From assembly GCA_021735655.1 (NCBI GenBank), contig JAIPGM010000003.1, forward strand, positions 214,836-278,835: DNA of 64,000 nt, given 5' to 3'. Source of the DNA: Candidatus Omnitrophota bacterium. GTDB lineage: Bacteria > Omnitrophota > Gorgyraeia > Duberdicusellales > 4484-171. Under the pieces are notes generated by a model, which was not told the DNA's origin, searched no databases, and worked only from the letters and a program-made list of their open reading frames with translations. The position numbers were made by a program, and so were the translations under genes. Below, one piece after another: positions 26,161-46,811 of this stretch. Numbering within the stretch: position 1 is the stretch's first letter; each line of letters opens with the position of its first letter.

Positions 26161-26817
26161 TTGGCGATGAGGAAGAGTTTTACTTTAATCGAGTTGATTG
26201 TAGTCATTGCGATTATCGCAATTCTAGCAGCAATCATCGCCCCTAATGCTTTTAGAGCAATCCAAAAAGCCAAGGCGTCTAGAATAATAGCTGACTTCAC
26301 TGCTATTAAGAGTGCAAGCATGAGCTTTTATGCTGATACCGGTAGTTGGCCGGTAAATATTGAACCTAGGCCAGATCCCGGAGGTACTAATTCTTGGACT
26401 TGGATAAAAAGTGGCCAGCATCCTCTTATGGATAATCTTAATAATTGGATTGGTTGGGACGGACCTTATCTAGAAAGCTCTTTAGCTTCGCCTTCTCCGC
26501 CTACTGGTGTTCCGGGCTGCACAAGCCCCGGATACTATTATACCCAATGGTGGGGCAGCGGTTGGCATGCGGGAGGTTATGGCAAATTTGATTTGGATAA
26601 AAATCCAAGTACCGGCGGAGCTTGTTATATAGCTGCTACTGGCTGTGAAGTTAATAGCGCTTGGAGTATAAATATTTTTCCTATACCTGCGGACGTGATG
26701 AAAAGTATCAACCTGGCTTTAGATGGTGACGATTCTTTTGATGATATGCTCGGGCGAGTGCAGGTTTATAGCGGTTGCGATGGTTTAGTAAGTTTTTACG
26801 TTTCTCATCCGATATAG
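26161..26817 (+). CDS. GspG/PulG-like pseudopilin with prepilin N-terminal methylation motif (Ser at -1)
   Basis: MAMRKS|FTLIELIVVIAIIAILAAIIAPN... followed by ...KAKASRIIADFTAIKSA... as in T2SS major pseudopilins; 218 aa with a Gly/Trp/Cys-rich C-terminal extension. Confidence 0.7.
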   Translation: MAMRKSFTLIELIVVIAIIAILAAIIAPNAFRAIQKAKASRIIADFTAIKSASMSFYADTGSWPVNIEPRPDPGGTNSWTWIKSGQHPLMDNLNNWIGWDGPYLESSLASPSPPTGVPGCTSPGYYYTQWWGSGWHAGGYGKFDLDKNPSTGGACYIAATGCEVNSAWSINIFPIPADVMKSINLALDGDDSFDDMLGRVQVYSGCDGLVSFYVSHPI

Positions 26818-26832
26818 AACATACATTTAGAC

Positions 26833-27492
26833 GTGCGATTGGTTAATAAAGAGTACTGTTTTCTTATTAAGGATGTTTTCTCATCTTTATCTTTGGTCGG
26901 ATTTACTAAAAACAGTCTAGTTGGCAATCTTCCTCAAGATATCCAGACAGCCCTTTCTTTTTCTGATCAACAGTTCAAAGTAGCCTATCTAAACCAGATC
27001 CATTCGGAAAAAGTCTTATCAGTTGACCAGGCTGGCTGCTACGAAGGTGATGGCTTGTTTACTAAAAATTCTGGTTTAGTTCTAGTTGTTAAAACTGCTG
27101 ATTGCTTACCGCTTCTTTTCGAGAGTAAGGAGCTGGGGGTAATCGGGGCAGTGCATATGGGTTGGAAATCAGCTAAGGCCGGTATTTTGGATAATCTACC
27201 TTATGAATTGAGTTCTTTTAAAGTAGTTGCTGGTGTGGGTTTAAGAAAATCTTGTTATGAGGTCGGGGATGATTTTCTCAATCATCAGCCGTTTAAGCCT
27301 TTTATCGAAAAGACAGACGCTAGGTTCTATTTTAACCCGGTAGAGTTTGCTAGGAGTGAACTTATTGCCAGGGGTTTAAAAGAAGACAATTTCATTGATT
27401 TAGATATTTGTAGCTTATGCAGTAAGAGCAATTTTTCTTCTTGTCGTCGCGGCGATACCTCATCAAGAACTTTATCTTTTATTTTAAGATAA
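26833..27492 (+). CDS. pgeF: DUF152 'laccase-domain' protein (PgeF/YfiH family)
   Basis: ...VKTADCLPLLF... and ...GAVHMGWKS... motifs of the YfiH family; 219 aa. Confidence 0.7.
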   Translation: MRLVNKEYCFLIKDVFSSLSLVGFTKNSLVGNLPQDIQTALSFSDQQFKVAYLNQIHSEKVLSVDQAGCYEGDGLFTKNSGLVLVVKTADCLPLLFESKELGVIGAVHMGWKSAKAGILDNLPYELSSFKVVAGVGLRKSCYEVGDDFLNHQPFKPFIEKTDARFYFNPVEFARSELIARGLKEDNFIDLDICSLCSKSNFSSCRRGDTSSRTLSFILR

Positions 27493-27575
27493 TGACTAAA
27501 AATTGTTATTACATTTATAAGATTATATGATAAAATTATAAACCAATCTTAACTAAATTTATTTAGAAGGTTAAT

Positions 27576-28685
27576 ATGGATCAAAAGAAGACACCACTTT
27601 ACGAACAGCACATAAAACAAAATGGCCGAATGGTTAATTTTTCCGGTTGGGTTCTGCCTTTGGAATATAGAAGTAGTCTTGAAGAGGCAAAGGCTGTCCG
27701 AAGCAGCTGTGGTATTTTCGATGCTTCACATATGGGCGAAATAGAGGTGACCGGAAAAGACGCCTTAGCGTTTTTGCAAAAACTTTTGAGCAACGACCTT
27801 TCTTTACTTAAGACCCAACAGATGCAGTACAATCTTATTCTTAATTCAGCCGGAGGTGTGGTTGATGACTGTATGGTTTATTGTTTAGAGAATAAATTTC
27901 TCTGCGTAGTGAATGCTTCCAATAAAGATAAGGTTTTTAGCTGGTTTAATAAAAATAAGCAAGGCAATGTTGAAATCAAGGATAAAAGTGAGGAGTTAGC
28001 TCTAATTTCTCTCCAGGGACCGAAAGCCGTTGGAGTGATTGCGGAAGTTATTGGTATTAAGCCTGTTGAGTTAAATTATATGTCTTTCTTAGAAGCTGCA
28101 ATCGATAACAAGTCTTTTTTAATTTCTCGTAGCGGTTATACCGGTGAAGATGGTTTCGAGCTTTATGTTCCTTCTGGTGATGCTGAATTTTGGTGGAATA
28201 AACTTTTAGCGGCTGGTGAGGTTTTCGGAATTACGGTTTGTGGGCTAGGGTCTCGTGATATTTTAAGAATTGAGGCTGGTTACCCTTTGTATGGTCATGA
28301 GCTTGATGATATTATTAATCCTTATGAAGCGACTTTGGCTTGGGCCCTAAAGCTTAATAAAGATTTGATTGCTAAAGAAGAATTAATGCATATTCAGCAG
28401 GAGGGTTTAAAAAGAAAGAGAGTCGGTCTAGTTATGCAGGAACGGGCTGTTCCGCGTCAGGGTTATTCGGTATACTTTAAAGATAAAGTTGTTGGAGAAG
28501 TTACTAGCGGTACTTATTCTCCTAATCTGGAACAGTTTATTGCTATGGCTTATTTAGATAAACAGTACACAGAAGTTGATTCAGAGGTTAAAATAAAGAT
28601 TCGTGATAAGTTTTATCAAGCAAAAGTGGTAAAGTTTCCTTTTATAAGACCAAAAACAAAAAAGTTAGCAAGTAAGGGGGCTTAA
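27576..28685 (+). CDS. gcvT: Glycine cleavage system aminomethyltransferase (T protein)
   Basis: 369 aa with GcvT fold; first gene of the gcvT-H-PA-PB block. Confidence 0.9.
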   Translation: MDQKKTPLYEQHIKQNGRMVNFSGWVLPLEYRSSLEEAKAVRSSCGIFDASHMGEIEVTGKDALAFLQKLLSNDLSLLKTQQMQYNLILNSAGGVVDDCMVYCLENKFLCVVNASNKDKVFSWFNKNKQGNVEIKDKSEELALISLQGPKAVGVIAEVIGIKPVELNYMSFLEAAIDNKSFLISRSGYTGEDGFELYVPSGDAEFWWNKLLAAGEVFGITVCGLGSRDILRIEAGYPLYGHELDDIINPYEATLAWALKLNKDLIAKEELMHIQQEGLKRKRVGLVMQERAVPRQGYSVYFKDKVVGEVTSGTYSPNLEQFIAMAYLDKQYTEVDSEVKIKIRDKFYQAKVVKFPFIRPKTKKLASKGA

Positions 28686-28686
28686 A

Positions 28687-29067
28687 ATGTCAGAGTTTAA
28701 ATTCACTAAATCTCATGAATGGGTGAAAGTAGAGCCAGATTCAGCAACTATCGGGATAACTGATTATGCTCAATCTCAGCTAGGTGATGTTGTATTTGTC
28801 GAACTGCCTAAACCTGGAGGCGCAATTCAACAGACTAAGCAGTTTGGTACCATTGAATCAACCAAGGCTGCCAGCGAGCTTTATGCTCCGATCGATGGAG
28901 AGATCGTTGAAGCTAATAACAATGTAGTTTCGAATCCTCAACTAGTTAATCAGTCAGCTCAAGATTTTGGCTGGTTACTTAAGGTAAAGATTTCTGATTT
29001 TTCTCAGCTTGATAGCTTGATGGATGAAGTAGCTTATCAAGAGTTTGTAGCTAAAGAAAGTAAATAA
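28687..29067 (+). CDS. gcvH: Glycine cleavage system H protein (lipoyl carrier)
   Basis: ...FGTIESTKAASELYAPIDGEIVE... carrying the lipoyl-lysine (ESTKA); 126 aa. Confidence 0.9.
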   Translation: MSEFKFTKSHEWVKVEPDSATIGITDYAQSQLGDVVFVELPKPGGAIQQTKQFGTIESTKAASELYAPIDGEIVEANNNVVSNPQLVNQSAQDFGWLLKVKISDFSQLDSLMDEVAYQEFVAKESK

Positions 29068-29082
29068 GCAGAAACTAATCAT

Positions 29083-32619: not shown

Positions 32620-32671
32620 TTTTATGGCTAATGAAAGCGTTTTCATTGTTTTCATAAAAACTCTTTATCCA

Positions 32672-32700: not shown

Positions 32701-32721
32701 ATAATTAGATGGGGAACGATA

Positions 32722-33138
32722 ATGGGGAGGCGTTGTAAGAACAAAAATAAATCATTTTCGCTCGTTGAAATTATCACGGTGATAATCATATTGGGGATTT
32801 TAGCGGCAATTGCTTCTCCCTCATATCACAGGATGATTGAGAGAAGCAGGGGCAAACACGCTGAGTTTAATCTCATGGCTGTTTATAATGCTCAGAAACG
32901 ACATCGCTTGGCTCAGAAGACCTACTATCAGTGTGTTAGTGCTCCTTGTGGTTCTCAAGAATTAGAAGATCACTTGGGAGTGTATATAAATGACCCTTAT
33001 TTTAATTATGGAATAGTAGCTAACACGACTACTTTTACGGCAACAGCTACTAGGATAAATAGTAATTTGTGTCTTGGCGCGACTATGAATGTGAGTGACA
33101 GTGGAAGTGAACCTATAAAAGGATGTGATCTTTGGTGA
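32722..33138 (+). CDS. Prepilin-type minor pilin (FimU/PilE-like), Ser at -1
   Basis: MGRRCKNKNKS|FSLVEIITVIIILGILAAIASPSY... class III signal; 138 aa. Confidence 0.65.
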   Translation: MGRRCKNKNKSFSLVEIITVIIILGILAAIASPSYHRMIERSRGKHAEFNLMAVYNAQKRHRLAQKTYYQCVSAPCGSQELEDHLGVYINDPYFNYGIVANTTTFTATATRINSNLCLGATMNVSDSGSEPIKGCDLW

Positions 33139-34703
33139 AAAATAGATTGAATAAAAAGGCTCGAGGTAACCGGCGTATTTTTGGGGCTTTCGGAGTCTTG
33201 ATTTTGGCGGCTCTTTTTCTTAGCTCAAGCTATTTCTTTGAATATTCATTTGCTCAAACACACCCTTTTCTAAAATATTTCCCAGCCAATGAAGAAATAA
33301 TTACTTATTCTACCGATGGATTTAGCGGTTATCCTTTAGCTTTAACTGAAATAACAAACTGTACTCCGCCCAGTTTTGGCGGAGTAGATTTATTTAAGGC
33401 TCTAGCTGATTGTAATGCTTGTATGGGTTGGAAGGAGGGCTGCGCTGATTGTTGTATTAATCCAACAACTCCGCCAGAGTACTTTTGTGCTCCCAGTGCA
33501 ACGGATCCTGGGCCTAGTGGTGGATATAATCCAGTGCCTTTTAGTGAAAATTGCGACGGCTCAACTCGAGTTTCCTGTACTACCTGTGGTCCTACCTTTT
33601 GTGGTCTTGATCCTGTGTTTGATAATTGTACTGGCTTTAATCCCTTGAATGTTGTTAGTGGCGATATTCCTAATTGTCAGCAGGCAGGATGTCCGATTTC
33701 AGATGATTATAGCTCTGTTGGTTGCGTTAGTGTTGGTTCCCCTCCTGAAACATATTGCATTGGAGATAAAACTCCTCTTGATAAAGGTTGTGTTCCTGTA
33801 ACTGAAGCCCAAGCAGTAGCAAGCTTGGGGTATAATCCGTTATTCCATACTTCAAGCACTGGGAGTGATTTTTATACAGTTACTACTCATCCAGCTGGGA
33901 CTTTTAACGATACTGATGACGTTACAGTTGCCTTTGATAATGAAGGCATAACTTTTGATCCAGACAATGATCCCTGCTTTCAGTATGGTCCAGGAGCCTT
34001 TTTAAATTATATTAATTCTTGTTCTGTTTATGCTGATGCTGCAGAGGTTGGATTTAAGGATAATCACTGTTGTCAGTCTGGAGTATGTAGTGGTGCGGGC
34101 ATGGGCGAGTGCGATACTAGCGGTGGCAATACAGCTACTATAGCCGATGACGGTGGTTGTACGAGCATAATGAATAATTGGGATAATCTTATACCTGTTT
34201 CTGCAGGGGTTAGTAAAAATTGCCATGCAGTTCAAGCTTTTGAATGTGTTGCTTTGCAAGAATTAGTAAATAACTGCATACAGAGTAATAACCAGTCTGA
34301 ATGTAGTGCTTGTTTTGTTGAAATTGATTCAGATTTTCGCTATGAATTTGTGCCAAAAAGCGGAGAGTCTTTAGTTCTTGTTTGGCTTATTGAGGCGGTA
34401 CCTGATATGCCAGCGGGCATGAACCCTAATTTTAATACCTATTTTTATAGCATGGTTAGGGTATTTGAACAGGGTGGAAGCGAACTCGGTCTTCCTACGA
34501 ATATTGTACATCAGAAAAATTTTACTTCCGCCTTTAGTGTTTTTGGCGCAACATCAATAGATTCATCATGGCTTACACCGGGTAAAAAATACGAAATAAG
34601 GGTATCTTATTTTATACCTAACGACTCTAATATTCCTCTTGGCGAACACTTAACGATGACCGTAAACCGCATGGAACTGGATGTTTTCAGAGTGCGGGAG
34701 TAG
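33132..34703 (+). CDS. Cysteine-rich secreted/membrane-anchored protein of unknown function, likely pilus-associated (tip adhesin candidate)
   Basis: N-terminal signal anchor (...IFGAFGVLILAALFL...); about 29 Cys between residues ~76 and ~393 (motifs CNAC, CADCC, CTTCGPTFCG, HCCQSGVCSG, ECSACF); Cys-free C-terminal ~130 aa. Start overlaps the upstream pilin stop. Confidence 0.55.
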   Translation: MVKNRLNKKARGNRRIFGAFGVLILAALFLSSSYFFEYSFAQTHPFLKYFPANEEIITYSTDGFSGYPLALTEITNCTPPSFGGVDLFKALADCNACMGWKEGCADCCINPTTPPEYFCAPSATDPGPSGGYNPVPFSENCDGSTRVSCTTCGPTFCGLDPVFDNCTGFNPLNVVSGDIPNCQQAGCPISDDYSSVGCVSVGSPPETYCIGDKTPLDKGCVPVTEAQAVASLGYNPLFHTSSTGSDFYTVTTHPAGTFNDTDDVTVAFDNEGITFDPDNDPCFQYGPGAFLNYINSCSVYADAAEVGFKDNHCCQSGVCSGAGMGECDTSGGNTATIADDGGCTSIMNNWDNLIPVSAGVSKNCHAVQAFECVALQELVNNCIQSNNQSECSACFVEIDSDFRYEFVPKSGESLVLVWLIEAVPDMPAGMNPNFNTYFYSMVRVFEQGGSELGLPTNIVHQKNFTSAFSVFGATSIDSSWLTPGKKYEIRVSYFIPNDSNIPLGEHLTMTVNRMELDVFRVRE

Positions 34704-34786
34704 GGATTATATAGACGCCATTGAGGGAAGAGATTAGTATAGATTAAGTATTAGGAAAAAGAAAGATGAGTACAAGGAGGTACAAA

Positions 34787-35626
34787 ATGAAAAAGATAGC
34801 AATTTTGGCTATAGTTTCTATGTTGGTTCTGCCTCTGTTGGGTTTTGCTCAAGAAGGCCAGAATATTGCAGTAGCACCTTTGGTGATTTCTGATGAAGGA
34901 AGCGGGACATTTACCTTAATTGAAACCCGTTGGCCTGACTTTTACAAGTACGTTCCAGCTGGGGGTTGTAGTGGATTGAGTAATTACAGTAAGAAGCGAA
35001 AGATTGAAGGAACTCCAACTTCACTTTATCCAATTTGTGGCAGTATGTTCTGCTATGTTACTGACGCTATCGATCCATCAACCGGCACTCTTCACAGCTA
35101 TCCGAATGCCGGGGCTCCAGCAGGTTATAACGTAGTTTATGAATATGCACCTAGTAATGCTGAGTATGTTCCAATTTCTGACTTAGGAGCAACAGTTAAC
35201 TTCGATGGCGACTGGGCTGAGTATCGTGATGTGGCTAGAATTTTGGTTACCTGGACAATTAGGCTTGAAGGTTATAAGAATATTATCCAGCCTAACCGAA
35301 AACATGATCCTTGGTTTAGTGGTGGTTGTGGTGGAACTACCTATCAATCTTTTCCCGAAGGTGATGTTTATACGAAGTTGTTCGTTAATGGCTCACCTAT
35401 AGGTAATCCGGCCATAATGACTATACCTTATGGCGGAAAGGGTTCAGCCTCAGGCGTAGTTGATCCAACCCATACCGGAAGCGTTGCGCTTACACCGGAC
35501 ATGTTCGGAGGATCTTTCCCAGCAACTTTGAATCTTGCAATTAAGGCTTACAATGACACTTGCATGTCAGTTCAAAGTCCTAATGGCATGAGGAATTTAG
35601 TTGTTACAGTAACACCGATTAACTAG
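34787..35626 (+). CDS. Secreted protein of unknown function (Sec signal peptide)
   Basis: MKKIAILAIVSMLVLPLLGFAQEG... signal peptide; four Cys; beta-rich composition. The ORF-track start at 34766 is probably 7 codons too long. Confidence 0.55.
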   Translation: MKKIAILAIVSMLVLPLLGFAQEGQNIAVAPLVISDEGSGTFTLIETRWPDFYKYVPAGGCSGLSNYSKKRKIEGTPTSLYPICGSMFCYVTDAIDPSTGTLHSYPNAGAPAGYNVVYEYAPSNAEYVPISDLGATVNFDGDWAEYRDVARILVTWTIRLEGYKNIIQPNRKHDPWFSGGCGGTTYQSFPEGDVYTKLFVNGSPIGNPAIMTIPYGGKGSASGVVDPTHTGSVALTPDMFGGSFPATLNLAIKAYNDTCMSVQSPNGMRNLVVTVTPIN

Positions 35627-35761
35627 AATTAAAGAAGACAAGACATAGAGGGCTAATTCCGGCCCTCTATGTCTATTTATTATAGGTAAAGTTTATCTTT
35701 CTTATTGGCCTTTCTGGCGTTATAATATTTATAGTTCGTTAAAATAAAAGTTGTTTTATAA

Positions 35762-36658
35762 ATGAAACATAAGGGATTAACCCTCATTGAGATAGTAGTT
35801 TCGGTAGTTTTAATCGGTATAGCTTTAATTGCTTTGGGAACAGCTTTAGTTACCGGAAAACACTTCATAAAAAGAGCTGAAAATGACGGCCGCGCTTTAA
35901 GCATAGCCTTGTCGCACAAAGAAGAACTTCTTAGTCGTTCTTATGACCATGCTGATTTATGTCCGGGTCTTTTTGGTTCCTCTTGTACGCAGAGTAATCC
36001 GGTTGGGTCGCCGGTAGATGGTTTTTTTAATTGGACCACGGTAGTAACTAATCGACGGGCTTGCAACACCGGTAGCACTCGTTGTATTCCCTATAAAGAA
36101 ATTATTGCTCAAGTTAATTATCCTGAAGAGGCAATCTCTGGCGCTAACAGTGGCATAACTAAAAGAGTTACCGTAAAGGATATAATTCCTTTTCCTAAGG
36201 TGCATCTTAGTGAGGCTAATACTGGGGTAGTTACCTGTGATGCTGCTGCTGGATGTGAAGTCCTTTTTGGCATTGGTAATGAAACAGTAGTTGGATCCGG
36301 TGGCGATTCCTTATCAATAGATCTTCCGGCTTACCCAGTAGAAAAAGATCTTTTAGTTATTTACAATATTGCAATTAATATCGAATTAAACGGAGCAGGC
36401 ATTCAAAATGCCGATAATATAGTAACTAGGTCCAGGATTATAAATAACGATAGCGGTGCTGTAACCTGGAGTTCAATGGTGACAGTTACCCCGATTATGT
36501 CTCAGGCAGTAATTAATAGTGTTTCAAGAATTTCTATTCCTGCTGCCGGTGTTAATGATCCCCATACGATTGAGGTACGTTGGTATAAGCAACAAAATAG
36601 AGGTCAAATATCTGTTAAGCGATCTAGTTTGACAGTGCTTGCTTTTGAAAGGGATTAA
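35762..36658 (+). CDS. Prepilin-type minor pilin (PilV/PilW-like), Gly at -1
   Basis: MKHKG|LTLIEIVVSVVLIGIALIAL...; 298 aa. Confidence 0.65.
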   Translation: MKHKGLTLIEIVVSVVLIGIALIALGTALVTGKHFIKRAENDGRALSIALSHKEELLSRSYDHADLCPGLFGSSCTQSNPVGSPVDGFFNWTTVVTNRRACNTGSTRCIPYKEIIAQVNYPEEAISGANSGITKRVTVKDIIPFPKVHLSEANTGVVTCDAAAGCEVLFGIGNETVVGSGGDSLSIDLPAYPVEKDLLVIYNIAINIELNGAGIQNADNIVTRSRIINNDSGAVTWSSMVTVTPIMSQAVINSVSRISIPAAGVNDPHTIEVRWYKQQNRGQISVKRSSLTVLAFERD

Positions 36659-36663
36659 AAGCT

Positions 36664-37236
36664 ATGAATAGCAAAGGCTTTACTTTAATTGAGATGATTG
36701 TAGTTTTACTTGTTATTAGTTTTATAATGATTACCATTACTTCTATAGCAATTTTTTTTACCCGCCAAGTTAATTTAAGTAGGGAAAGAACGAATATGTG
36801 GAGTCAGCTAGAATATACCGTTAGTGATATGCGTACTCGTTGCGTTAGCGCTGTCACCACTATTACCCCGCTTAGCCCTTGCGGAAGTATCACTATTAAT
36901 GGTACTAGTGGTAGTAACTTTACCTTTAACGGTGAGGCAGATATATATAGTATTACTCCTGATAATATTACTGATAATGTAAATTATACCTATAGCATAC
37001 AGAATGACGGAGCCTTGATTTTACAGACTACTGGAGGCGTTACTGATGTTTTAATTGATGGAAAATATAACCCCGAGCTAATCTTTGAACACCATTGCGA
37101 AGTCGTTGGCGGGGTGACTATTCCTGATGAGCCACATTTTATTAGGGTTAACCTTACACTTGAAAACGTTAGCTTCGGTCTTAATGCTTCTCGGGAAGAC
37201 GCAATACGTTTTTGGTTTTTGGATGTAGTACAATGA
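36664..37236 (+). CDS. Prepilin-type minor pilin (PilW/GspJ-like), Gly at -1
   Basis: MNSKG|FTLIEMIVVLLVISFIMI...; 190 aa. Confidence 0.65.
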   Translation: MNSKGFTLIEMIVVLLVISFIMITITSIAIFFTRQVNLSRERTNMWSQLEYTVSDMRTRCVSAVTTITPLSPCGSITINGTSGSNFTFNGEADIYSITPDNITDNVNYTYSIQNDGALILQTTGGVTDVLIDGKYNPELIFEHHCEVVGGVTIPDEPHFIRVNLTLENVSFGLNASREDAIRFWFLDVVQ

Positions 37237-37625
37237 TAGCAATTGTAATTTCAATCACAGTTTCTCTTTCTATTCTCTTGAGTGCTTTTGTATCTTTTAG
37301 CCCGAGCTTTAAAGCTATAGTTGAAGGAGAGATTAAACGTAAAGCTCAAGAAAGCGCTTGGGTTTATGCTTCGAAAAGCGGTCAACTTATTGAACGGGCT
37401 AATTCTGATGGTAACCCTCCGGATAACTTTACCTGTGTTACTGCGGCTAGTGCCTGGAATTGCATGGGAACTGTTCCGATGCGAGAGGAAGAGTCAGGCG
37501 GCGTTTGGACTGACACTGAACATGTATGTATAGAAGTCAGTCGGTCGGCACCTGCTTTTCCGGATTTACCTAAAATTACAGTAGAAAATGTTACTTCTAG
37601 TAGCCAAACTTGCCCCCATCACTAA
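37233..37625 (+). CDS. Small membrane-anchored protein, possible degenerate pseudopilin (PilX/GspK-like position)
   Basis: Start MIAIVISITVSLSILLSAFVSF... (ATGA overlap with the upstream stop); hydrophobic N-terminus without a canonical G/S-FTLIE motif; four Cys in the C-terminal half. Confidence 0.4.
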   Translation: MIAIVISITVSLSILLSAFVSFSPSFKAIVEGEIKRKAQESAWVYASKSGQLIERANSDGNPPDNFTCVTAASAWNCMGTVPMREEESGGVWTDTEHVCIEVSRSAPAFPDLPKITVENVTSSSQTCPHH

Positions 37626-38506: not shown

Positions 38507-38688
38507 TAGTATATATACTAAATACTTTCCTAAGTATTTACTTATCAATCAGAAAGACAGGGTATTTTTTAGGATAAGTGAGCTTATTTCCTGATAATTT
38601 TAGAAGGGGGCTTTGTACACAATATCTAGTGGCATAGTCAAAAGCATACAATATATTGAAAATAGCGTTAAATCGTAGGAAATTATGC

Positions 38689-38717
38689 TTGACAGAGGTA
38701 AACAAAGATAATTTAAT
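38689..38717 (+). promoter_or_regulatory. Sigma-70-like promoter upstream of the HTH gene and pilus assembly operon (TTGACA, 17 nt spacer, TTTAAT)
   Basis: ttgaca at 38689-38694; tttaat at 38712-38717; lies in the 236-bp AT-rich intergenic region after lipA. Confidence 0.35.
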
Positions 38718-38741
38718 AGAGATATAACCATTTTATAACAA

Positions 38742-38927
38742 ATGATAAAGAGAAAGGCAGTTCCTCGGTTGATGAGTGTTGATGAGTTGGCAGATTATTT
38801 AGGTCTGCAGAAGCAGACTATTTATAATTGGCTACACTTAAAGAAGATTACCGGAATAAAAATCGGTAAAGTTTGGCGTTTTGATCGTAAGTATATTGAT
38901 CAGTGGCTGAAAAAGTGTAGTGAGTGA
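38742..38927 (+). CDS. Excisionase-family helix-turn-helix DNA-binding protein (HTH_17-like)
   Basis: 61 aa; ...LMSVDELADYLGLQKQTIYNWLHLKKITGIKIGKVWRFDRKYIDQWL... matches the MerR-like excisionase/Xis HTH pattern (hydrophobic-xxEhAxhLGhSxxThYxW...G.hPxxKhGxxWRF). Confidence 0.65.
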   Translation: MIKRKAVPRLMSVDELADYLGLQKQTIYNWLHLKKITGIKIGKVWRFDRKYIDQWLKKCSE

Positions 38928-38933
38928 TAAGTT

Positions 38934-40421
38934 ATGGCTAAAACAGTAGGATTATATTTGGGTGTAGATACTTTAGGGGTAGCAGTAGTCAGCGGCCGCA
39001 ATCTCGTTAATTTTAATCAGTTTAACCTTTCTGTTGCCGAAGAGTCTAAACAGGGAGTGGTAAATGAGGATGTCCGCTTAGAAGCTTCAATTAATAAAGC
39101 ACTCAGAGAAGCGGGTGTTGTTAGTGAGAGCATATACCTTTCTTTAGCTGATCGAGATTTTATTTTTCGTTCTCTTGAAATGCCACTCATGCGTAAGGGC
39201 GAGATTGAGTCATCTTTGGTTTATGAAGTTGAGAAGTATATACCTTTTAAGATGACTGAGTTGGAGTGGACCTACGCCAGCGTGCGTTCAGCCAAAGAGA
39301 AAAAGATGAATATATCTTTTGTCGGCATCCGGGACAAAAATCTAGGGCGGATTAGAGATATCTTGGGTCGTTTGGATCTTGGTATTATTTTTATTGAGCC
39401 ATCTTCTTTATCTCTATTTAGGGCACTTAAGACCTTGAAGCGGTTCTCAAAAATAAAGGATTTTGCCCTTTTGGACATTACAAAGACCGAATCCCATCTT
39501 ACTTTTTTCCAGGATGAACTTCCGGTATTCAACCGTTATCTTACTATTCCTAAGAAGGAAGACTCTTTTGACACCGGTAAATTTTCCGAATCAGTAGATT
39601 TTTCTTTTCAGTACTTTAAACGTGAATTTCGTTCTTATAAACTTGATAAGTTTATCTTGGTCAGTGACATTGAGAGTAAAGAGTTAGCTTCTAGCCTTGA
39701 AGAAGGGCTACAGGTTTCAGTTGAGGCTGTTTCTTCTTCTGATATAGCCAATCGTAATGATGCCAGCGTTGAAAGCATGAAGGCTTTCGGGGCAGCAGTT
39801 CAAGATCAATTCCCTTCAGTTTTTAAATCAAGCTTCAGGAAGACCCAGATTTCTAAAGAAGGAGAGATGATTGAGATTGGCGTTGATGCTCCCGACTTAA
39901 GGATAGGTTTAATCGGAGCTCTTTTAGGTATAGGTTTGGTAGCTGCTTTTTTTACTTCTATTATTATGGGCAATGAGGTTGTTGAAAAGAAAGCTTATGT
40001 AAATAGGCAAAGAGAGGAAGTTGTTGTTCCTAAAGGGCTTGAAAACTTTTCTTGGGATCAGTATCCGGAGGTTGTTAAGGATCTAGAGAAAAAGACCAAA
40101 GAGTTAAAAGATTCTCAAGAGTCATTTAGTAATCTTGCTAATATTTTTGAAGCTTTAAGTAGCCGCAGGGTTTTACCGGAAGGGTTGTGGCTTGAGAATT
40201 TTAGAATTACTCGTCAGAAGGGAACTAGTAATGGAAAGGTAACCGGATATCTGTTTCGTGACGACGATCAAGATGAGCGTTCGGGCTTAGATGATTTTGT
40301 TTCCAGGCTTAAGGCCGAGCCCTCATTACAACAAGCTTTTCCGACCATTGAAATTGATTTTTCTAAGCGACAAACTAAAAAGGAATTTGAAGTTACCTAT
40401 TTTTCTATAACTTTAAAGTAA
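38934..40421 (+). CDS. PilM-PilN fusion protein (actin-like ATPase-fold domain plus TM helix plus periplasmic PilN-like domain)
   Basis: 495 aa, about 150 aa longer than PilM; N-terminus MAKTVGLYLGVDTLGVAVVSG... (actin-like fold); single TM at ~residues 305-330 (RIGLIGALLGIGLVAAFFTSIIMG) followed by a coiled-coil/periplasmic region; first gene of the pilMNOPQ-like block. Confidence 0.55.
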   Translation: MAKTVGLYLGVDTLGVAVVSGRNLVNFNQFNLSVAEESKQGVVNEDVRLEASINKALREAGVVSESIYLSLADRDFIFRSLEMPLMRKGEIESSLVYEVEKYIPFKMTELEWTYASVRSAKEKKMNISFVGIRDKNLGRIRDILGRLDLGIIFIEPSSLSLFRALKTLKRFSKIKDFALLDITKTESHLTFFQDELPVFNRYLTIPKKEDSFDTGKFSESVDFSFQYFKREFRSYKLDKFILVSDIESKELASSLEEGLQVSVEAVSSSDIANRNDASVESMKAFGAAVQDQFPSVFKSSFRKTQISKEGEMIEIGVDAPDLRIGLIGALLGIGLVAAFFTSIIMGNEVVEKKAYVNRQREEVVVPKGLENFSWDQYPEVVKDLEKKTKELKDSQESFSNLANIFEALSSRRVLPEGLWLENFRITRQKGTSNGKVTGYLFRDDDQDERSGLDDFVSRLKAEPSLQQAFPTIEIDFSKRQTKKEFEVTYFSITLK

Positions 40422-40422
40422 A

Positions 40423-40902
40423 ATGAAAGAATTAGCGCGTTATAAAAATATTGTTGTTAGTTTGTTTATTGTACTTATCGTTGCAATATCGCTACGCAGT
40501 ATTTACTCTAACTATTCTCTAAAGCTCAAAAAATTATCAGAAGAGGAAGTACAGATAAAAGAGGCTAAGGATATTATATTTGAATGGATAAACCTTAACA
40601 GTAAACTTGAACAGCTTAGAAGCCAGTTTTTGGAAAAAGACACAATTCTTTTTAAGAAGCTTGTTGAAGAAAAAGCAAGGCTGGCTAAGATTGATCTTCC
40701 TTCCTTGCGACTTTCGCGTATTGATAAAGATTCTTATTGGGAGGTTAGGGTAAGGCTTAACACCACTTGTCCTTATAGTAATTTTGTAGAGTTTGTTGAT
40801 TCCCTCGCTGATAAAAATATAGAGGTAGTTACCGCAAGCTTGAGTGGTGATAGAGAAAAAGTAGCGGTTGATGCTGAGATAAAGGGGGTTGTTCTTAAAT
40901 GA
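40423..40902 (+). CDS. PilO-like inner-membrane pilus assembly protein
   Basis: 159 aa; N-terminal TM (IVVSLFIVLIVAISL), coiled coil, C-terminal alpha/beta domain; position after PilMN. Confidence 0.45.
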   Translation: MKELARYKNIVVSLFIVLIVAISLRSIYSNYSLKLKKLSEEEVQIKEAKDIIFEWINLNSKLEQLRSQFLEKDTILFKKLVEEKARLAKIDLPSLRLSRIDKDSYWEVRVRLNTTCPYSNFVEFVDSLADKNIEVVTASLSGDREKVAVDAEIKGVVLK

Positions 40903-41237
40903 GGCTTATAAAAGTGGCTTTTCTTTTATTGTTTTTGCTTTTGCCGATACTGCTTTATTCAGCTGAAAGCTATCGAAATCCTTTTGAATCATTACTTCCT
41001 AAGGAAGAGGTTGCCGGAGAGGCAGGGGTTCAAGAAGTTGTCAAGCCTTTAACGATCGTTGTTCAGGGGGTTTTGTGGGGAAGCTTAATGCCACAGACGA
41101 TTATCGACGGTGAGGTTTATAAAGTTGGTGATCAACTTAAGAGCCTTGAGAATGCTTCAGTACTTCGGATTACCAAGAATGTAGTTTTCATAGTTCATGG
41201 CGATAAGATTCATAAGATGATGGTTACTAAAAAATAA
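40899..41237 (+). CDS. PilP-like pilus assembly protein
   Basis: 112 aa; signal peptide; conserved YRNPF motif (the R-D/N-P-F motif of PilP) followed by a beta-rich C-terminus; lies between the pilO-like gene and the secretin. Confidence 0.45.
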   Translation: MRLIKVAFLLLFLLLPILLYSAESYRNPFESLLPKEEVAGEAGVQEVVKPLTIVVQGVLWGSLMPQTIIDGEVYKVGDQLKSLENASVLRITKNVVFIVHGDKIHKMMVTKK

Positions 41238-41286
41238 TTATGATATCTAAGAATTTAATATTTTTTTGGTTATTAAGGGGGGCAAT

Positions 41287-42777
41287 ATGAAGAAAATTTT
41301 TGCTTTGATTTTAGCGGTAGTATTTATTATTTCCGGTAGCGGGTTTTCCCAGGATGATATCTATGGAGGGTATTTGCTTGGTACCTTTGACAAGCGGGTT
41401 TCACTTGACCTTGAGGAAGCCCAGCTGGTAGATGTTTTGAAAATGCTTTCTCAGCAAACTGGTCTCAACTTTGTATCCACTGAGGCGGTACAGGAGAGAA
41501 AGCTAACCCTCTATTTTGATGAAGTTCCTTTGCGAGAAGCAATGGACGTTGTTTTTAAGGCCAATAAACTTAGTTATGATTATTATCCGGATTCTAATAT
41601 TTTTGTAGTAAAGGAGATGGGTAAACCAAGCTTAGAGTTAATTAGTAAAGTTTATCGTTTAAACTATGTACGAGTAAAAACCGCTCGAATGCAGAAAGAG
41701 ATAGAGGATATTATTGAAGATTCTGAGAGCGGTGAAGAAGATGGCGGAGAAACAGAAGCCGGAGGCATTCGACAGGCTGTTGAAGCAGTATTGAGTGAAT
41801 TTGGCAAAGTGACCGAAGATCCGATAACTAACTCTTTAATCGTAGTTGATGTTCCGTCCCAATTTCCGATTATTGATGAAGTGGTGAGCAGGTTGGATCT
41901 TGCTATACCGCGGGTTATGATCGAAGTAGAAATGCTAGATGTTTCTAAGACTCACCTTGATAAATTAGGGTTTAACTATGCTAATGGTTTATACGGGGCT
42001 GTTGGAGCCGGCGCTCGTTCAAGTGAAGTACCTTTTGGAGCCAAATTTTTAAAAGGAACACAAGTAGTCCAAACTACAGCCGGAGGATTAGCTCCGCCGG
42101 TTTTAAGTATACTGGACTTAACCGGTTTTACCTCAGTAATGCAGTTTTTGACCGAGGACACTTCGACTAAGTTTATCGCTCGGCCAAAAATACTTACTAT
42201 TTCTAATGAAACAGCTGAAGTTAACTTAACGGTAAATGAAGCTATCGGTGTTACTACTACCCAAGATACTTCTGGCGGAGGTTCAATTACTCAGAATGTT
42301 GAACGTGAGGAAACTGGGACTAAGCTTCGGGTTACTCCTCAGGTTAATCCTAATACTCAGGAAATTACTTTAATGGTTGAGATGTTTAATCGTGAATCTA
42401 CTGATAGTGGTATAACCGTTACCGGTATATCAGGCGGCGAAGTGAAGAACGTTGAAGAAAGAGGTACGAAAAGTGTAATTCGCTTGAAAGATAGCGAAAC
42501 TCTTTATATTGGTGGTTTAATCCGCAAGGAAGAAAAAGAAATCATACGTAAGATTCCTCTTTTGGGCGATATTCCATTTTTGGGAAAAATGTTCAGTTAC
42601 ACCGAACGTCCAGGCGCCGATAATCAAGAGCGGGAATTGCTGGTATTTTTAACCCCGCGAATCGTCGAAGACGGAACAATGATACAGGCTAAGAGAATCA
42701 AGGTTTTACCTCGTGAGCAAGCTGATGTAACTAAGAGAGATTCAGTAACAGTAGCCTTAGATAGTTTTGTTAGATAG
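41287..42777 (+). CDS. pilQ: PilQ/GspD-family secretin
   Basis: Signal peptide MKKIFALILAVVFIISGSGFS; N-terminal secretin-N-type domain; C-terminal secretin core ...YIGGLIRKEEKEIIRKIPLLGDIPFLGKMFSYTERPGADNQERELLVFLTPRIV... Confidence 0.8.
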   Translation: MKKIFALILAVVFIISGSGFSQDDIYGGYLLGTFDKRVSLDLEEAQLVDVLKMLSQQTGLNFVSTEAVQERKLTLYFDEVPLREAMDVVFKANKLSYDYYPDSNIFVVKEMGKPSLELISKVYRLNYVRVKTARMQKEIEDIIEDSESGEEDGGETEAGGIRQAVEAVLSEFGKVTEDPITNSLIVVDVPSQFPIIDEVVSRLDLAIPRVMIEVEMLDVSKTHLDKLGFNYANGLYGAVGAGARSSEVPFGAKFLKGTQVVQTTAGGLAPPVLSILDLTGFTSVMQFLTEDTSTKFIARPKILTISNETAEVNLTVNEAIGVTTTQDTSGGGSITQNVEREETGTKLRVTPQVNPNTQEITLMVEMFNRESTDSGITVTGISGGEVKNVEERGTKSVIRLKDSETLYIGGLIRKEEKEIIRKIPLLGDIPFLGKMFSYTERPGADNQERELLVFLTPRIVEDGTMIQAKRIKVLPREQADVTKRDSVTVALDSFVR

Positions 42778-42877
42778 AATAATCAGAGAACAGAAGGCAG
42801 GATTAAAAAGGCCAGAGACAATAATTCTGACCTGAAAAGGCTGGCTTCTGTTTTCTATTTTTAATGGTAGGATCAGA

Positions 42878-44587
42878 ATGGCACGTTATAAAAAATTAGG
42901 CGACATTTTAATTTCTGAAAGTATCATTGCCGAGAAGCAGCTTAAGGAAGCCATCTTACTACAGGAAAAAGAAGGTGGTAAGCTTGGCGAGGTGATGATA
43001 CGCTTAGGCTATGTAAATGAAGAGCAGATCGTCATAGCTTTAAGTAAGCAGCTTTCAATTCCTTATGTTTCTTTGGCTTCAGGAAGATTAAAACCAAATT
43101 CAGAACAAAACTTAGAAGAACTTATTCCTCAAGATTTTGCCGTAAAAAATATTGTCTTGCCGCTTTCACGTAGCCTTAACTCGTTAACTATAGTAATGTT
43201 TGATCCTTTAGATTTGATTCTTTTGGATAATTTAAAAAAAATAACCAGTTGTGAAATAAACGTAGTAGTCTCAACTCGTACTGATATTTTGAAAGCCCTT
43301 GAGTCTTTTTATGGTCGGGATAAAATATTTCGTGATGCTATTCAAATAGCTGGTTCTGAAGAAAAAGCCGCGATCAAAGAACTTGCTTCTGAGGAAACTG
43401 ATCTAAGCTTAGATAAACTTATTGCTCAGGCTGAGGAAGCTCCGGTTGTTAAGTTGGTAGATCTTTTGATTCGCCAGGCAATTGAGGAGAATGCTTCTGA
43501 TATTCATCTTGAGCCACATTATGATAAGCTAAGCCTACGTTACCGTATCGACGGAGTGTTGTTTGATATGCCTTCGCCAGCAGCTGGACTGTACTTACCG
43601 ATAATTTCTCGGGTCAAGATCCTTTCTAAAATGGACATAGCCGAAAAACGCCTCCCTCAAGATGGGGGCTTTATGGTAAAAGTGTCAAAACGTCTTATTG
43701 ATTTGCGAGTTTCAACTCTTCCGACTATTTATGGCGAAAAGGTAGTATTGAGAATTCTTGATAAGTCTCGGGTACCATTAGACTTAGCAAAGTTAGGGTT
43801 TTTACCCCAGGAACTTGAGTTGATCCGAAAAGGAATTAATACTTCTTATGGCCTAGTTTTTCTTACCGGACCCACTGGAAGTGGAAAATCAACCACTCTC
43901 TATGCAGCTTTAAACGAAATTAAAGCTTCAACTAGAAATATTCTTACTGTAGAAGACCCGGTGGAATATCGTATTGAAGGAATAAACCAGGTTCAAGTGA
44001 AGCCAGAGATTGGCCTTACTTTTGCCAATGCGCTTCGTTGTTTCTTAAGACAGGATCCGGATATAATTTTAGTCGGAGAGGTAAGAGATTTAGAAACTGC
44101 TGAGATGACGATCCGAGCGGCCTTAACTGGCCATTTGGTCTTTTCAACGCTTCACACTAATGACGCTGCTTCTACAGTTACTCGGCTTGTCGACATTGGC
44201 ATACCTAGTTACTTGGTAACTGCCTCTACCAGACTAATTGTTGCCCAGCGCCTAGTACGCAAGCTTTGTCCTTCTTGCAAGGAGCCCTATGAGGTGAGAA
44301 AAGAAAGTATCCCTGATGGAGTAACTATCAGTTCTCCGGTCATTTATAAAGCTAAAGGGTGTGAAAAGTGTAATTTTATTGGTTATAAGTCTAGATCAGT
44401 TATTACTGAAATTATTTTAGTTACTGAAGAGGTACGCTTGGCAATACATCGAGGAGCTGAACCAGGAGAGATTATGAAGATTGCCAAGAAGACTGGTTCA
44501 CTGAGTCTTTTGGAGAGTGGTTTAAAGAGAGTGGAGGAAGGGATAACTTCTCTAGAGGAAATTTTATCGGTAGCGGTAGTTTACTAA
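42878..44587 (+). CDS. pilB: Type IV pilus / T2SS assembly ATPase (PilB/GspE family)
   Basis: N1 domain; Walker A GPTGSGKSTT; Asp box, His box, tetracysteine zinc motif CPSCKEP...CEKC; 569 aa. Confidence 0.9.
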   Translation: MARYKKLGDILISESIIAEKQLKEAILLQEKEGGKLGEVMIRLGYVNEEQIVIALSKQLSIPYVSLASGRLKPNSEQNLEELIPQDFAVKNIVLPLSRSLNSLTIVMFDPLDLILLDNLKKITSCEINVVVSTRTDILKALESFYGRDKIFRDAIQIAGSEEKAAIKELASEETDLSLDKLIAQAEEAPVVKLVDLLIRQAIEENASDIHLEPHYDKLSLRYRIDGVLFDMPSPAAGLYLPIISRVKILSKMDIAEKRLPQDGGFMVKVSKRLIDLRVSTLPTIYGEKVVLRILDKSRVPLDLAKLGFLPQELELIRKGINTSYGLVFLTGPTGSGKSTTLYAALNEIKASTRNILTVEDPVEYRIEGINQVQVKPEIGLTFANALRCFLRQDPDIILVGEVRDLETAEMTIRAALTGHLVFSTLHTNDAASTVTRLVDIGIPSYLVTASTRLIVAQRLVRKLCPSCKEPYEVRKESIPDGVTISSPVIYKAKGCEKCNFIGYKSRSVITEIILVTEEVRLAIHRGAEPGEIMKIAKKTGSLSLLESGLKRVEEGITSLEEILSVAVVY

Positions 44588-44604
44588 GATAAACTTTAAA
44601 ACAT

Positions 44605-45828
44605 ATGCCTAAATTTAATTATCTGGCAAAATCAAAGGATGGAAAGACTTTTAAGGGCGTAACTCATGCTCTTACCAGTTCGGAGCTAGTAGAGCGTCTA
44701 AAAGGCAAGGGTCTTTTTGTCATTTCGATATCTCCGCTAAAAGAAAAAGCTCATAGATCTCCGGTGGGCGGCTTGGTTCGTCGAGGTAAACGTTCAGGCG
44801 TAAAACTTATCGATTTAACTTTTTTTGCTAGGAATTTAGCAACTACCCTTTCAGCTGGCGTAACCCTTTTACGTAGTTTGGAAATCATTGCCCATCAGAG
44901 CGAGAGTTTAAAGTTGGAGAAAGTATTACGCAAATGCTGCGAGTATGTAAAAAGCGGTCTTTCTTTCAGTGAGGCGATTTCTAAACATCCAACTGTATTT
45001 TCGCCTCTTTGGCGGGGGATCGTTCATGTTGGGGAAACTTCAGGAAATTTACCTTTTGTTTTAGAAAAACTTGCTGACTATTTAGAGTTACGAATGGAAT
45101 TTGAGCGAAAGGTTAAAAGCGCCTTAGTTTATCCGGTAATTTTGATGGTTGCTGCCGGTTTGGCAGTTGTAATTTTTTTAAAGTTTATTCTTCCTAAATT
45201 TATAAAGATTTTTGAGCAGTTTGATATAGAGCTTCCGCTTCCTACCCGGATAATTTTTGCACTTAGTCGATTCTTTTCTGAGCACTTTCTCATGGTTGTT
45301 GTAATTCTGGTGGGTTTAATTGTTTTATTTTTTATGATTAAAGATCGAGTTGCTGTGCGCCGCTGGTGGGATCGAGCTTGTTTTAAGATCCCGCTTTTTG
45401 GGACGGTAATGATTACTTTTTATCTTGAACGACTTACTTCAACCCTTTACATCCTTCTTGATAGCGGCATACCGGTAGTCTATGGTTTGGAGATTACCGC
45501 CGAAAGCATTGGTAATACCTTGCTTAGGGATAGTATTATGTTTGTTAAGGAGAGAGTAAAAGAGGGTGCTTCTTTATCTGAGGAGTTAAAGAATGCAAAT
45601 GTTTTTCCGCTCTTGGTTTCTGAAATGACTAAAATTGGTGAGGAAACCGGAACGATTTCTGAAGTTTTTAACAAAGTTTCGTTGCATTATCGTAAAGAAC
45701 TTACTACCCGGGTTGAGAGAATCATTGCTGCTTTTGAGCCTTTAATGATTATTTTTATGGGAGTTATTATCGGTGGCCTAGTTATTTCGCTGTTTTTACC
45801 TTTATTTAAGCTGACTAGCATTCAATAG
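44605..45828 (+). CDS. pilC: Type IV pilus / T2SS inner-membrane platform protein (PilC/GspF family)
   Basis: Two tandem GspF domains, three TM segments; 407 aa. Confidence 0.85.
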   Translation: MPKFNYLAKSKDGKTFKGVTHALTSSELVERLKGKGLFVISISPLKEKAHRSPVGGLVRRGKRSGVKLIDLTFFARNLATTLSAGVTLLRSLEIIAHQSESLKLEKVLRKCCEYVKSGLSFSEAISKHPTVFSPLWRGIVHVGETSGNLPFVLEKLADYLELRMEFERKVKSALVYPVILMVAAGLAVVIFLKFILPKFIKIFEQFDIELPLPTRIIFALSRFFSEHFLMVVVILVGLIVLFFMIKDRVAVRRWWDRACFKIPLFGTVMITFYLERLTSTLYILLDSGIPVVYGLEITAESIGNTLLRDSIMFVKERVKEGASLSEELKNANVFPLLVSEMTKIGEETGTISEVFNKVSLHYRKELTTRVERIIAAFEPLMIIFMGVIIGGLVISLFLPLFKLTSIQ

Positions 45829-45942
45829 CGCCTAACAAAGGTTAGGTTTTGACAGTGGCTGATAGATGTGGTATAAAAGGAATAAAGGATATAATTATTA
45901 ATCCGTCCTAATGGTTGGGACTTATTGAAAGGAGGTTTCAAG

Positions 45943-46338
45943 ATGAGAAAAGGGTTTACGCTTCTAGAACTATTGATTGTAGTAATTGTTATTGGAATTC
46001 TAGCTGGAGTAGCTATTCCTCAGTATCTTGCAGTAGTTGAAAGAGGCAAGGTGGCTGCCGCAAAAAATAACCTTGCTATCGCTGCTCAGGCCGAGAAAAT
46101 GTATCGTACCGAGCATACCGCTTATACAGGAAATTTTAGCGATCTCGACAATTGGACTGAAGGTATATCTGATGCTATAGCTGCCCATGCTGCTGATTGG
46201 AACTATTCAATTGCTGATGCAGCAGATACTTTTACTATTACAGCCACAAGAGTTGGCGCAGCTGGCTCCAAGCACGGAGGTAAAACAGTCACAATTAACG
46301 AAACTAATCATGTTGGTGGGGACCACGATTTTCACTAA
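45943..46338 (+). CDS. Type IV pilin (likely major pilin), Gly at -1
   Basis: MRKG|FTLLELLIVVIVIGILAGVAIPQYLAVVERGKVAAAKNNL...; 131 aa from this start (ORF track begins 6 codons earlier at 45925). Confidence 0.75.
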   Translation: MRKGFTLLELLIVVIVIGILAGVAIPQYLAVVERGKVAAAKNNLAIAAQAEKMYRTEHTAYTGNFSDLDNWTEGISDAIAAHAADWNYSIADAADTFTITATRVGAAGSKHGGKTVTINETNHVGGDHDFH

Positions 46339-46391
46339 ACTAGTTTTGCAGTAAGGATAGCTAACTGTTTTTTCCAAGGGTTTTAAATACT

Positions 46392-46811
46392 ATGTTGTCT
46401 AGACCAAGTTTTAGCCTAATTGAGCTTATTACAGTTATAATTGTAATAAGTTTGTTAGTTCTTTTGGCTTTTCCGACTTACCTGAGCGTTCAAAGAAGAA
46501 TTCTTGACCGCGAGGCCGGAACCCATCTAACACTTATTCAGGCTGCTGAGAAATCCTATCGTATCGAAGAGCGTGCTTACGTGGATACGGCAAATACTAC
46601 CAACACCAATGAACTTCTAGGCCTTGATTTATCACCGACTGGTCACTGGAGTTATTCAGTGCCAACTGGTTTTGTTAACAATGCTTCGAATCCACCAACT
46701 TTTTGCGCTGAAGCAACCAGCGGAGGTGAAGCTTGGCATATTGATCAGGACGATCATGAAGCAGCTGATTGTGATTGCGCTCTTACTGCTGCTACTTGTA
46801 CTGGGCGTTAA
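46392..46811 (+). CDS. Type IV pilin-like protein, Ser at -1
   Basis: MLSRPS|FSLIELITVIIVISLLVLLAFPTY...; C-terminal Cys pair (CDC...C); 139 aa. Confidence 0.7.
   Translation: MLSRPSFSLIELITVIIVISLLVLLAFPTYLSVQRRILDREAGTHLTLIQAAEKSYRIEERAYVDTANTTNTNELLGLDLSPTGHWSYSVPTGFVNNASNPPTFCAEATSGGEAWHIDQDDHEAADCDCALTAATCTGR

Follow-up and report, generated by a model that had tools for sequence, protein, structure and literature searches.

The 64,000-nucleotide stretch of contig JAIPGM010000003.1 considered here (hereafter the window), from a bacterium of the phylum Omnitrophota, carries a type IV filament gene set and encodes six prepilin-like proteins, three of which have serine in place of glycine at position -1, the residue immediately before the predicted cleavage site. 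Comparison with related loci shows that the non-Gly(-1) pattern is phylum-wide in Omnitrophota and that the state of -1 depends on the type of pilin, with Gly in the major pilin and Ser, Ala or Thr in most others, a dependence that went unnoticed in the first reading of this DNA (the earlier note). The interpretation favoured here, with a probability of roughly 0.55, is that the lineage has an A24 prepilin peptidase with a permissive -1 pocket, for which Ser(-1) prepilins would be normal filament substrates and the -1 residue would need only to be small.

In bacteria, Gly(-1) has been called invariable (PMC4471445), and the predictor PilFind words the cleavage residue as 'glycine or alanine' (PMC3244431). 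A literature search returned no account of Ser(-1) or Thr(-1) prepilins in a bacterial lineage, nor of prepilin processing in Omnitrophota, which is not proof that none exists.

Six prepilins with two kinds of cleavage junction

The six proteins are listed below, with the predicted cleavage site marked by a slash.

26167..26817, + strand: Ser(-1) prepilin-like protein, GspG-like/PilW_C, orphan (MRKS/FTLIELIVVIAIIAILAAIIAPNAF; PF07963 28 bits, PilW_C weak)
32722..33138, + strand: Ser(-1) prepilin with a ComP_DUS-type pilin fold, leading the minor-pilin operon (MGRRCKNKNKS/FSLVE; PF16732 34.3 bits, PF07963 26.5 bits)
35762..36658, + strand: Gly(-1) prepilin-like protein of 298 amino acids (aa) (MKHKG/LTLIE; PF07963 22.9, TIGR02532 18.3)
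36664..37236, + strand: Gly(-1) prepilin-like protein of 190 aa (MNSKG/FTLIE; PF07963 27.8, TIGR02532 23.3)
45943..46338, + strand: Gly(-1) prepilin, candidate major pilin, first gene after pilC (MRKG/FTLLE)
46392..46811, + strand: Ser(-1) prepilin, second pilin after pilC (MLSRPS/FSLIE; Ser codon AGT)

All N-termini read as the earlier note had claimed, namely as six class III signal peptides, three with Gly(-1) and three with Ser(-1), and the NCBI gene calls share them (P0001, P0121). Judged by the bacterial class III criterion of Gly(-1), the proteins at 35762, 36664 and 45943 are conventional and those at 26167, 32722 and 46392 are not. The leaders comprise 4-11 aa and contain Lys or Arg, a hydrophobic tract of ~20 residues is found in 6/6, and Glu(+5) is likewise present in all six (FTLIE, FSLVE, LTLIE, FTLIE, FTLLE and FSLIE, in the order of the list). 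Since -1 abuts F(+1) or its equivalent and E(+5) fixes the register, the choice of start codon cannot alter the -1 residue, and start-codon reassignment, which the earlier note had proposed as a refutation, cannot apply. For instance, an alternative TTG start at 26161 extends the N-terminus of the 26167 protein to M(AM)RKS/FTLIE, with its Ser codon AGT; the Ser(-1) codon of the 32722 gene is TCA, and the 45943 gene is preceded by an AGGAGG ribosome-binding site 8 nt upstream. Two of the leaders, MRKS and MRKG, have only 4 residues, as does MKKS, the most frequent one in the GspG-like family described below; such leaders fall below the range of 6-26 residues given in a review (PMC4471445).

The curated cut-offs of PF07963 N_methyl and TIGR02532 are both passed by five of the six proteins, the 26167 protein scoring 22.4 bits in TIGR02532 against a cut-off of 16.3. 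The exception is the 46392 protein, which lies below the Pfam N_methyl cut-off (14.3 vs 21.2 bits), has no TIGR02532 match, and is assigned by its motif, its place directly after the major pilin gene and its NCBI name (GspH family). In TIGR02532, the two matching Ser(-1) proteins align from profile position 4 onwards and the Gly(-1) proteins from position 1-2; the pilin models read the mature end and skip a non-Gly junction. In addition, the GspG equivalog TIGR01710 (cut-off 88.85 bits) gave 41.3 bits for 26167, 50.3 for 45943 and 36.6 for 32722, with ~60 N-terminal residues aligned, so 'GspG-like' denotes resemblance and not family membership. The 45943 and 46392 genes lie beside filament machinery, directly after pilC, and the 26167 gene is an orphan among housekeeping genes, ~12.8 kb upstream of pilM. 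No further convincing prepilins emerged when the whole window was scanned for the motif in six frames.

The -1 residue across Omnitrophota

Comparative data were drawn from PilC-anchored loci, comprising six Omnitrophota reference-genome loci and 53 metagenome loci. As to lineage, all six close pilC loci of reference genomes are labelled Omnitrophota (PilC 53-76% identical). An Omnitrophota-like set of ~50 loci was assembled from the window, the loci with a PilC at least 48% identical to that of the window, and two loci reached through GspG-like paralogues, with duplicates removed. The outgroup consisted of the E. coli gsp operon, a Lachnospiraceae locus and distant metagenome loci (PilC 28-33% identical).

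Among the 136 unique prepilins of the Omnitrophota-like loci, -1 is Gly in 56, Ser in 42, Ala in 25, Thr in 7, Phe in 3, Val in 2 and Cys in 1, corresponding to shares of 41% for Gly, 31% for Ser and 18% for Ala. The residue is small (Gly, Ser, Ala, Thr or Cys) in 131/136 (96%) and charged in none of that set. Position -2 is Lys in 100/136 and Arg in 11/136 (Lys or Arg in 111/136), Lys and Arg dominate both -2 and -3 in the whole set, and Phe(+1) and Thr(+2) dominate the Gly and the non-Gly sets alike, giving the consensus K-[GSAT]/F-T-L-x-E. The same scan of the outgroup loci found Gly(-1) in 20/20 (Fisher p = 1.3e-7 vs the Omnitrophota-like loci). The statement of the earlier note that Ser(-1) substrates are rare fails in this lineage, where they make up 31% of pilC-adjacent prepilins and 60/120 of the sampled 26167 family.

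The Ser(-1) codons are AGY in 16 cases and TCN in 26; AGY accounts for 35% of background usage in these loci. Because this usage matches the background, Ser is an old, maintained state and not a recent GGY-to-AGY mutation; recent Gly-to-Ser mutational noise is ruled out by the TCN majority. Furthermore, the idea that the pattern is an artefact or a chance event, arising from sequencing or assembly errors in metagenome-assembled genomes (MAGs), wrong starts or random variation in three genes, can be regarded as refuted. It draws some support from two of the three Ser codons of the window, which are AGT, a single transition from GGT, but the third is TCA, and an independent Logan assembly of SRR12088349 contains the same pilus cluster, with PilB identical and the pilin genes of the same lengths and order. 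Start codons have no effect on the -1 residue; over 100 independent contigs show the skew, their Ser codons are mostly TCN, and the outgroup has Gly throughout.

Major pilin versus other pilins

Within the clusters, the -1 residue divides according to the place of the pilin. The first pilin after pilC, the candidate major pilin, has Gly(-1) in 34/38 unique sequences, and the other pilins of the clusters have Gly in 19/76 (S 30, A 18, T 5, F 3, V 1), a contrast with an odds ratio of 25 (p = 2.6e-11). At the second pilin after pilC, -1 is S in 12 cases, G in 8, A in 6, F in 3, T in 2 and V in 2. In the last pilin of the clusters, a protein of ~165-207 aa whose +1 residue is Val or Ile, -1 is S, A or T in every case, and across all sampled prepilins with Val or Ile(+1) these three residues account for 22/24. 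The post-pilC pair of the window fits the phylum rule, with Gly in 45943 and Ser in 46392. Second-position pilins with Phe or Val at -1 occur at L032:11857, L051:7735, L063:938 and L033:10424 of the comparative loci (MVLRKRKF/FTLLE, MQKKF/FTIVE, MVYGPKRV/FTLLE).

Families of the Ser(-1) proteins

The orphan 26167 protein belongs to a GspG-like family with 968 homologues at E < 1e-3, and every one of these that carries an organism name is from Omnitrophota. The -1 residues were tabulated for the best 120 of the 968, which were found by homology and not by motif: S 60, G 31, A 12, T 7, N 3, V 3, H 2 and F 1. Ser is the majority -1 state in this family. Within the same best 120 of 968, positions +1 to +25 are essentially FTLIELIVVIAIIAILAAIIAPNAF in 119, and the mature end, including Glu5, is thus equally constrained whatever the -1 residue. 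Nearest neighbours in the family agree in their -1 residue in 49% of cases, vs 33% by chance, and in 67% at an identity of at least 70% (variable domain). Such frequent switching fits a near-equivalence of small residues.

GspG-like paralogues form a large and scattered set in Omnitrophota. One locus (L015, 10001-15944) holds five copies within 6 kb, and copies are inserted at differing places of otherwise syntenic regions (L013 vs the window); others lie at L002:3622-4215, L013:10001-10627 and L013:17837-18472. A paralogue from the same MAG (P0034), with Val(-1), adjoins ComEA- and ComEC-like genes.

The family of the 32722 protein was sampled as 139 motif-bearing representatives (50% identity), with -1 being G in 78, A in 41, S in 16, C in 2, T in 1 and R in 1; ten Ser- or Cys(-1) representatives were looked up, and the one named member among them is from Omnitrophota. 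The 46392 family is tiny, and its sole homologue with an intact N-terminus (P0122, 87% identical) retains Ser (MLSRKS/FSLIE).

Probable processing of non-Gly(-1) prepilins

Taken together, a small -1 residue, Lys(-2) and an equally conserved mature end including Glu5 indicate that cleavage at the usual position is most likely retained in the Ser-, Ala- and Thr(-1) proteins. A size constraint at -1 is predicted by a cleavage site and not by an unprocessed cytoplasmic tail, which supports cleavage. We infer cleavage itself, processing by a single peptidase and any difference in rate from these sequence patterns. With a permissive peptidase, all six proteins of the window would be inserted with their Lys/Arg leader of 4-11 residues in the cytoplasm, cleaved before Phe or Leu(+1), and assembled through the hydrophobic helix and Glu5, a residue that is important for filament assembly (PMC6497953). 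The requirement at -1 in Omnitrophota would be for a small residue only (Gly, Ser, Ala, Thr, rarely Cys), and the A24 pocket of the lineage would be more permissive at this position than PilD of P. aeruginosa or S. sanguinis and comparable to that of archaeal PibD. The earlier note had offered three readings, a relaxed peptidase, a distinct peptidase and no processing; the comparative -1, -2 and mature-end data favour the first, and the other two are less favoured.

Several observations weigh against a permissive peptidase. In S. sanguinis PilE1, the G-1A variant is fully processed and assembled and the G-1S variant is neither (PMC6497953), and the premise of the earlier note, a strong bacterial preference for Gly(-1), is right for characterised bacteria. 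In P. aeruginosa, as summarised in the same paper, a -1 residue bulkier than Ala abolishes processing (PMC6497953). Phe or Val(-1) in 5/136 of the prepilins, and N, V, H or F in 9/120 of the GspG-like homologues, do not fit a small-residue rule; the Phe- and Val(-1) pilins, a poor fit to every cleavage model, may be non-processed or decaying copies. In addition, the metagenome loci were placed taxonomically by a PilC identity of at least 48% and not by labels. The locus motif scan demanded Glu(+5) and a leader Lys or Arg, so that Glu5 retention holds there by construction and counts as an observation only for the 120 homologues of the 26167 protein, which were found by homology. To these is added the lack of any Omnitrophota A24 peptidase in the window, its flanks and 759 kb of loci, as set out in the next section.

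If the non-Gly(-1) proteins were not processed at all, they would keep their leaders and remain membrane-anchored as scaffold, priming or surface modules, not as filament subunits. The Ser(-1) block of PilD processing in S. sanguinis is in keeping with this, as are the many orphan GspG-like paralogues scattered away from machinery genes and the rare Phe, Val, His and Asn(-1) residues, which look uncleavable. An uncleaved tail should nevertheless tolerate any residue at -1, yet in the 136 prepilins small residues prevail and charged ones are absent; moreover, Ser(-1) and Gly(-1) members show the same invariance over the first 25 residues of the mature protein, Glu5 among them, and Ser(-1) pilins sit within pilus operons beside the major pilin. 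An absence of processing is considered unlikely.

Given a permissive peptidase, the contrast between pilin types could arise if the abundant major pilin were kept at the optimal Gly by selection for maximal processing efficiency, with minor pilins and orphan GspG-like paralogues drifting among, or settling on, Ser, Ala and Thr, possibly at the cost of slower maturation. Among the orphan paralogues, the repeated changes between S, G, A and T can be taken as near-neutrality. A more far-reaching and rather doubtful suggestion is that the identity of the -1 residue acts as a rate control, which would give rapid maturation of the major pilin and slow maturation of the minor pilins and of the orphan GspG-like modular pilins, of which there are dozens. 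This would set subunit stoichiometry or the order of incorporation without transcriptional control.

The search for the prepilin peptidase

The earlier note had stated that no prepilin peptidase gene is present in the window, and three approaches agree. No A24 peptidase was matched by phmmer with E. coli GspO against open reading frames (ORFs) of at least 80 aa, nor when the search was repeated at a threshold of at least 60 aa; a GxGD scan of the hydrophobic ORFs of the window was likewise without a match; and Pfam on the membrane proteins of the window returned Mem_trans, DUF6580 and CPBP/Rce1-like families only. Beyond the window, GspO phmmer and the GxGD scan detected no A24 or GxGD protein in 69 fetched loci (759 kb, mostly pilC-centred), and no A24 gene was found in ~15 kb of window flanks from Logan assemblies or around the paralogues P0034, P0040, P0090 and P0017, in a search by single-sequence phmmer that a very divergent A24 enzyme might escape and that had no distant positive control. 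A tblastn search of GspO against plasmids returned almost entirely proteobacterial peptidases, and look-ups of P0105, of the TTG-start form of the 26161 protein and of the recombinase at the end of the window yielded no record. In this lineage pilD is not linked to pilB, pilC or pilin genes, which does not imply its absence from the genome. The Omnitrophota sequence searched also gave no evidence of an archaeal-type peptidase.

These results bear on the idea that two enzymes share the work, with a canonical PilD cleaving the Gly(-1) major pilin and a second dedicated peptidase paralogue, or an unrelated membrane protease, cleaving the Ser-, Ala- and Thr(-1) proteins. The split by pilin type (34/38 vs 19/76 Gly) would fit separate routes, and the division of labour between EppA and FlaK in Methanococcus, two peptidases with different substrate rules, offers a model (PMC4390842, PMC4371748). 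On the other hand, -1 switches among G, S, A and T within orthologous families even at an identity of at least 70%, which sits badly with a residue that selects the enzyme; apart from -1, the two sets of prepilins, Gly and non-Gly, look much alike (Phe at +1, Thr at +2); and no peptidase adjoins the pilin genes in the 759 kb. Two enzymes are judged improbable, even more so than an absence of processing. A CPBP/Rce1-like intramembrane protease is encoded ~6 kb from the pilin genes (52885-53835, minus strand), which would suit a second enzyme, but no link to the pilins is seen. As the processing enzyme itself this protein, with neither linkage nor precedent, is a very distant candidate and was set aside.

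Comparison with known prepilin systems

The Omnitrophota proteins resemble bacterial PilD/GspO substrates (P. aeruginosa PilA, E. coli GspG-J, S. sanguinis PilE1) in their basic leader, F/L/V/I(+1), Glu(+5) and helix of ~20 residues, as well as in their N_methyl/TIGR02532 matches and the position of their genes beside PilB, PilC, PilM and secretin genes. They differ from these substrates in having Gly(-1) in only 41% of prepilins, leaders down to 4 residues and an unlinked peptidase gene. The tolerance of bacterial PilD for Ala(-1) likewise shows that A24 enzymes accept a small non-Gly residue; unlike that case, Ser is commoner than Ala in Omnitrophota, Thr is present, and non-Gly residues are the majority in at least one large family.

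Archaeal PibD substrates (Sulfolobus, Haloferax) provide a second point of comparison. Archaeal pilins given as PibD substrates include some with predicted Ala(-1) sites, for example KA/IS and RA/LS (PMC4371748), and the Omnitrophota proteins share with them -1 residues beyond Gly and a typical Lys or Arg at -2. Unlike in archaeal substrates, their mature end (F-T-L-I-E, with Glu5) and the pilin and GspG-like families to which they belong are bacterial, and their genes accompany a secretin-containing diderm machinery. Measured against an archaeal FlaFind-type criterion (Lys or Arg at -2, Gly, Ala or Ser at -1, and a mature end that often has no Glu at +5), the -2/-1 pattern fits, but the mature end with Glu5 and the homologues are bacterial.

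A further likeness is found in the N_methyl expansions of the Planctomycetes-Verrucomicrobia-Chlamydiae (PVC) group (Planctomycetes DUF1559, Verru_Chthon cassette), which also consist of scattered paralogues with a near-identical prepilin N-terminus and variable C-terminal domains. TIGR02596 (Verru_Chthon cassette protein D) matched two window proteins weakly, at 25 and 22.8 bits against a cut-off of 70, and these are not members of that family.

Gene content of the window

The window has a G+C content of ~38%, and the + strand carries nearly all genes of its first 49 kb. Its type IV filament gene set comprises a PilM-like gene, a secretin gene, PilB/GspE and PilC/GspF genes, two pilin genes and a separate upstream minor-pilin operon. 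The components other than the six prepilins are as follows.

33132..34703, + strand: 523-aa Cys-rich protein with an N-terminal anchor, within the minor-pilin operon (no match in Pfam/NCBIfam)
34766..35626, + strand: 286-aa secreted protein with a signal peptide, within the minor-pilin operon (no match in Pfam/NCBIfam)
37212..37625, + strand: membrane-anchored ORF of 130-137 aa, last of the minor-pilin operon, lacking a class III motif and Glu5
38934..40421, + strand: PilM-like platform protein with a C-terminal transmembrane extension (PF11104 PilM_2, 27.4 bits)
40423..41237, + strand: two small ORFs, 159 and 112 aa, at the usual PilO/PilP positions (placed by position only, with no family match)
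41266..42777, + strand: secretin, PilQ/GspD type (PF00263 128.8 bits, and Secretin_N)
42878..44587, + strand: assembly ATPase, PilB/GspE type (PF00437 448 bits, and MshEN)
44605..45828, + strand: platform protein, PilC/GspF type, the anchor for the comparative loci (PF00482 190.7 bits)

The minor-pilin operon (32722-37236) lies ~1.7 kb upstream of pilM and runs in the order pilin 32722, 33132, 34766, pilin-like genes 35762 and 36664, and membrane ORF 37212. By its position only, the 33132..34703 product is a candidate pilus-associated adhesin, and on the same ground the products of 33132-34703 and 34766-35626 could be pilus-tip adhesins or accessory proteins. The 37212-37625 ORF, called as 130 aa in the Logan contig, has a hydrophobic N-terminus, partly overlaps the last pilin gene (36664) at its 3' end and may be a degenerate pilin-like component. 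Between the minor-pilin operon and the pilM-secretin-pilBC operon, at 37610-38927, lie a lipoyl synthase gene (LIAS_N/Radical_SAM) and a 61-aa HTH_17 excisionase-type gene, in an arrangement identical in the Logan contig.

Further downstream, two adjacent PKD-repeat proteins of 844 and 269 aa are encoded at 54171-57514; their C-terminal segments are near-identical (NTAPVADAGPNLVCCQGKE and NQPPVADAGPNKVCCQGKE), and they are probably surface proteins. A tRNA-His gene (62057-62133, + strand) and a serine-recombinase-like ORF (62096-63592, minus strand) overlap at the 3' end of the latter. The independent Logan assembly breaks at this site (62057-63592), apparently the border of an integrated mobile element.

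Implications

The Omnitrophota have been proposed to lead a host-attached or predatory lifestyle. Their filament machinery, as far as the window represents it, is itself ordinary; what appears to be new is a phylum-level relaxation of the -1 rule together with a conserved contrast between the major and the other pilins, for which the mechanism proposed above is deduced from sequence. The Gly(-1) rule is built into reviews, prediction tools and even a model name (TIGR02532, 'GFxxxE'), and ~60% of the sampled prepilins of this phylum depart from it. Rule-based predictors would miss the Ser and Thr cases (~36% of those sampled), and all non-Gly cases (~59%) if only Gly were accepted. Altogether, the -1 specificity of A24 peptidases may be more plastic in bacteria than models suggest, and Omnitrophota would supply natural enzyme-substrate pairs for mapping the -1 pocket. 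The contrast between a major pilin with Gly and other pilins with Ser, Ala or Thr suggests, finally, that cleavage efficiency may be tuned subunit by subunit.

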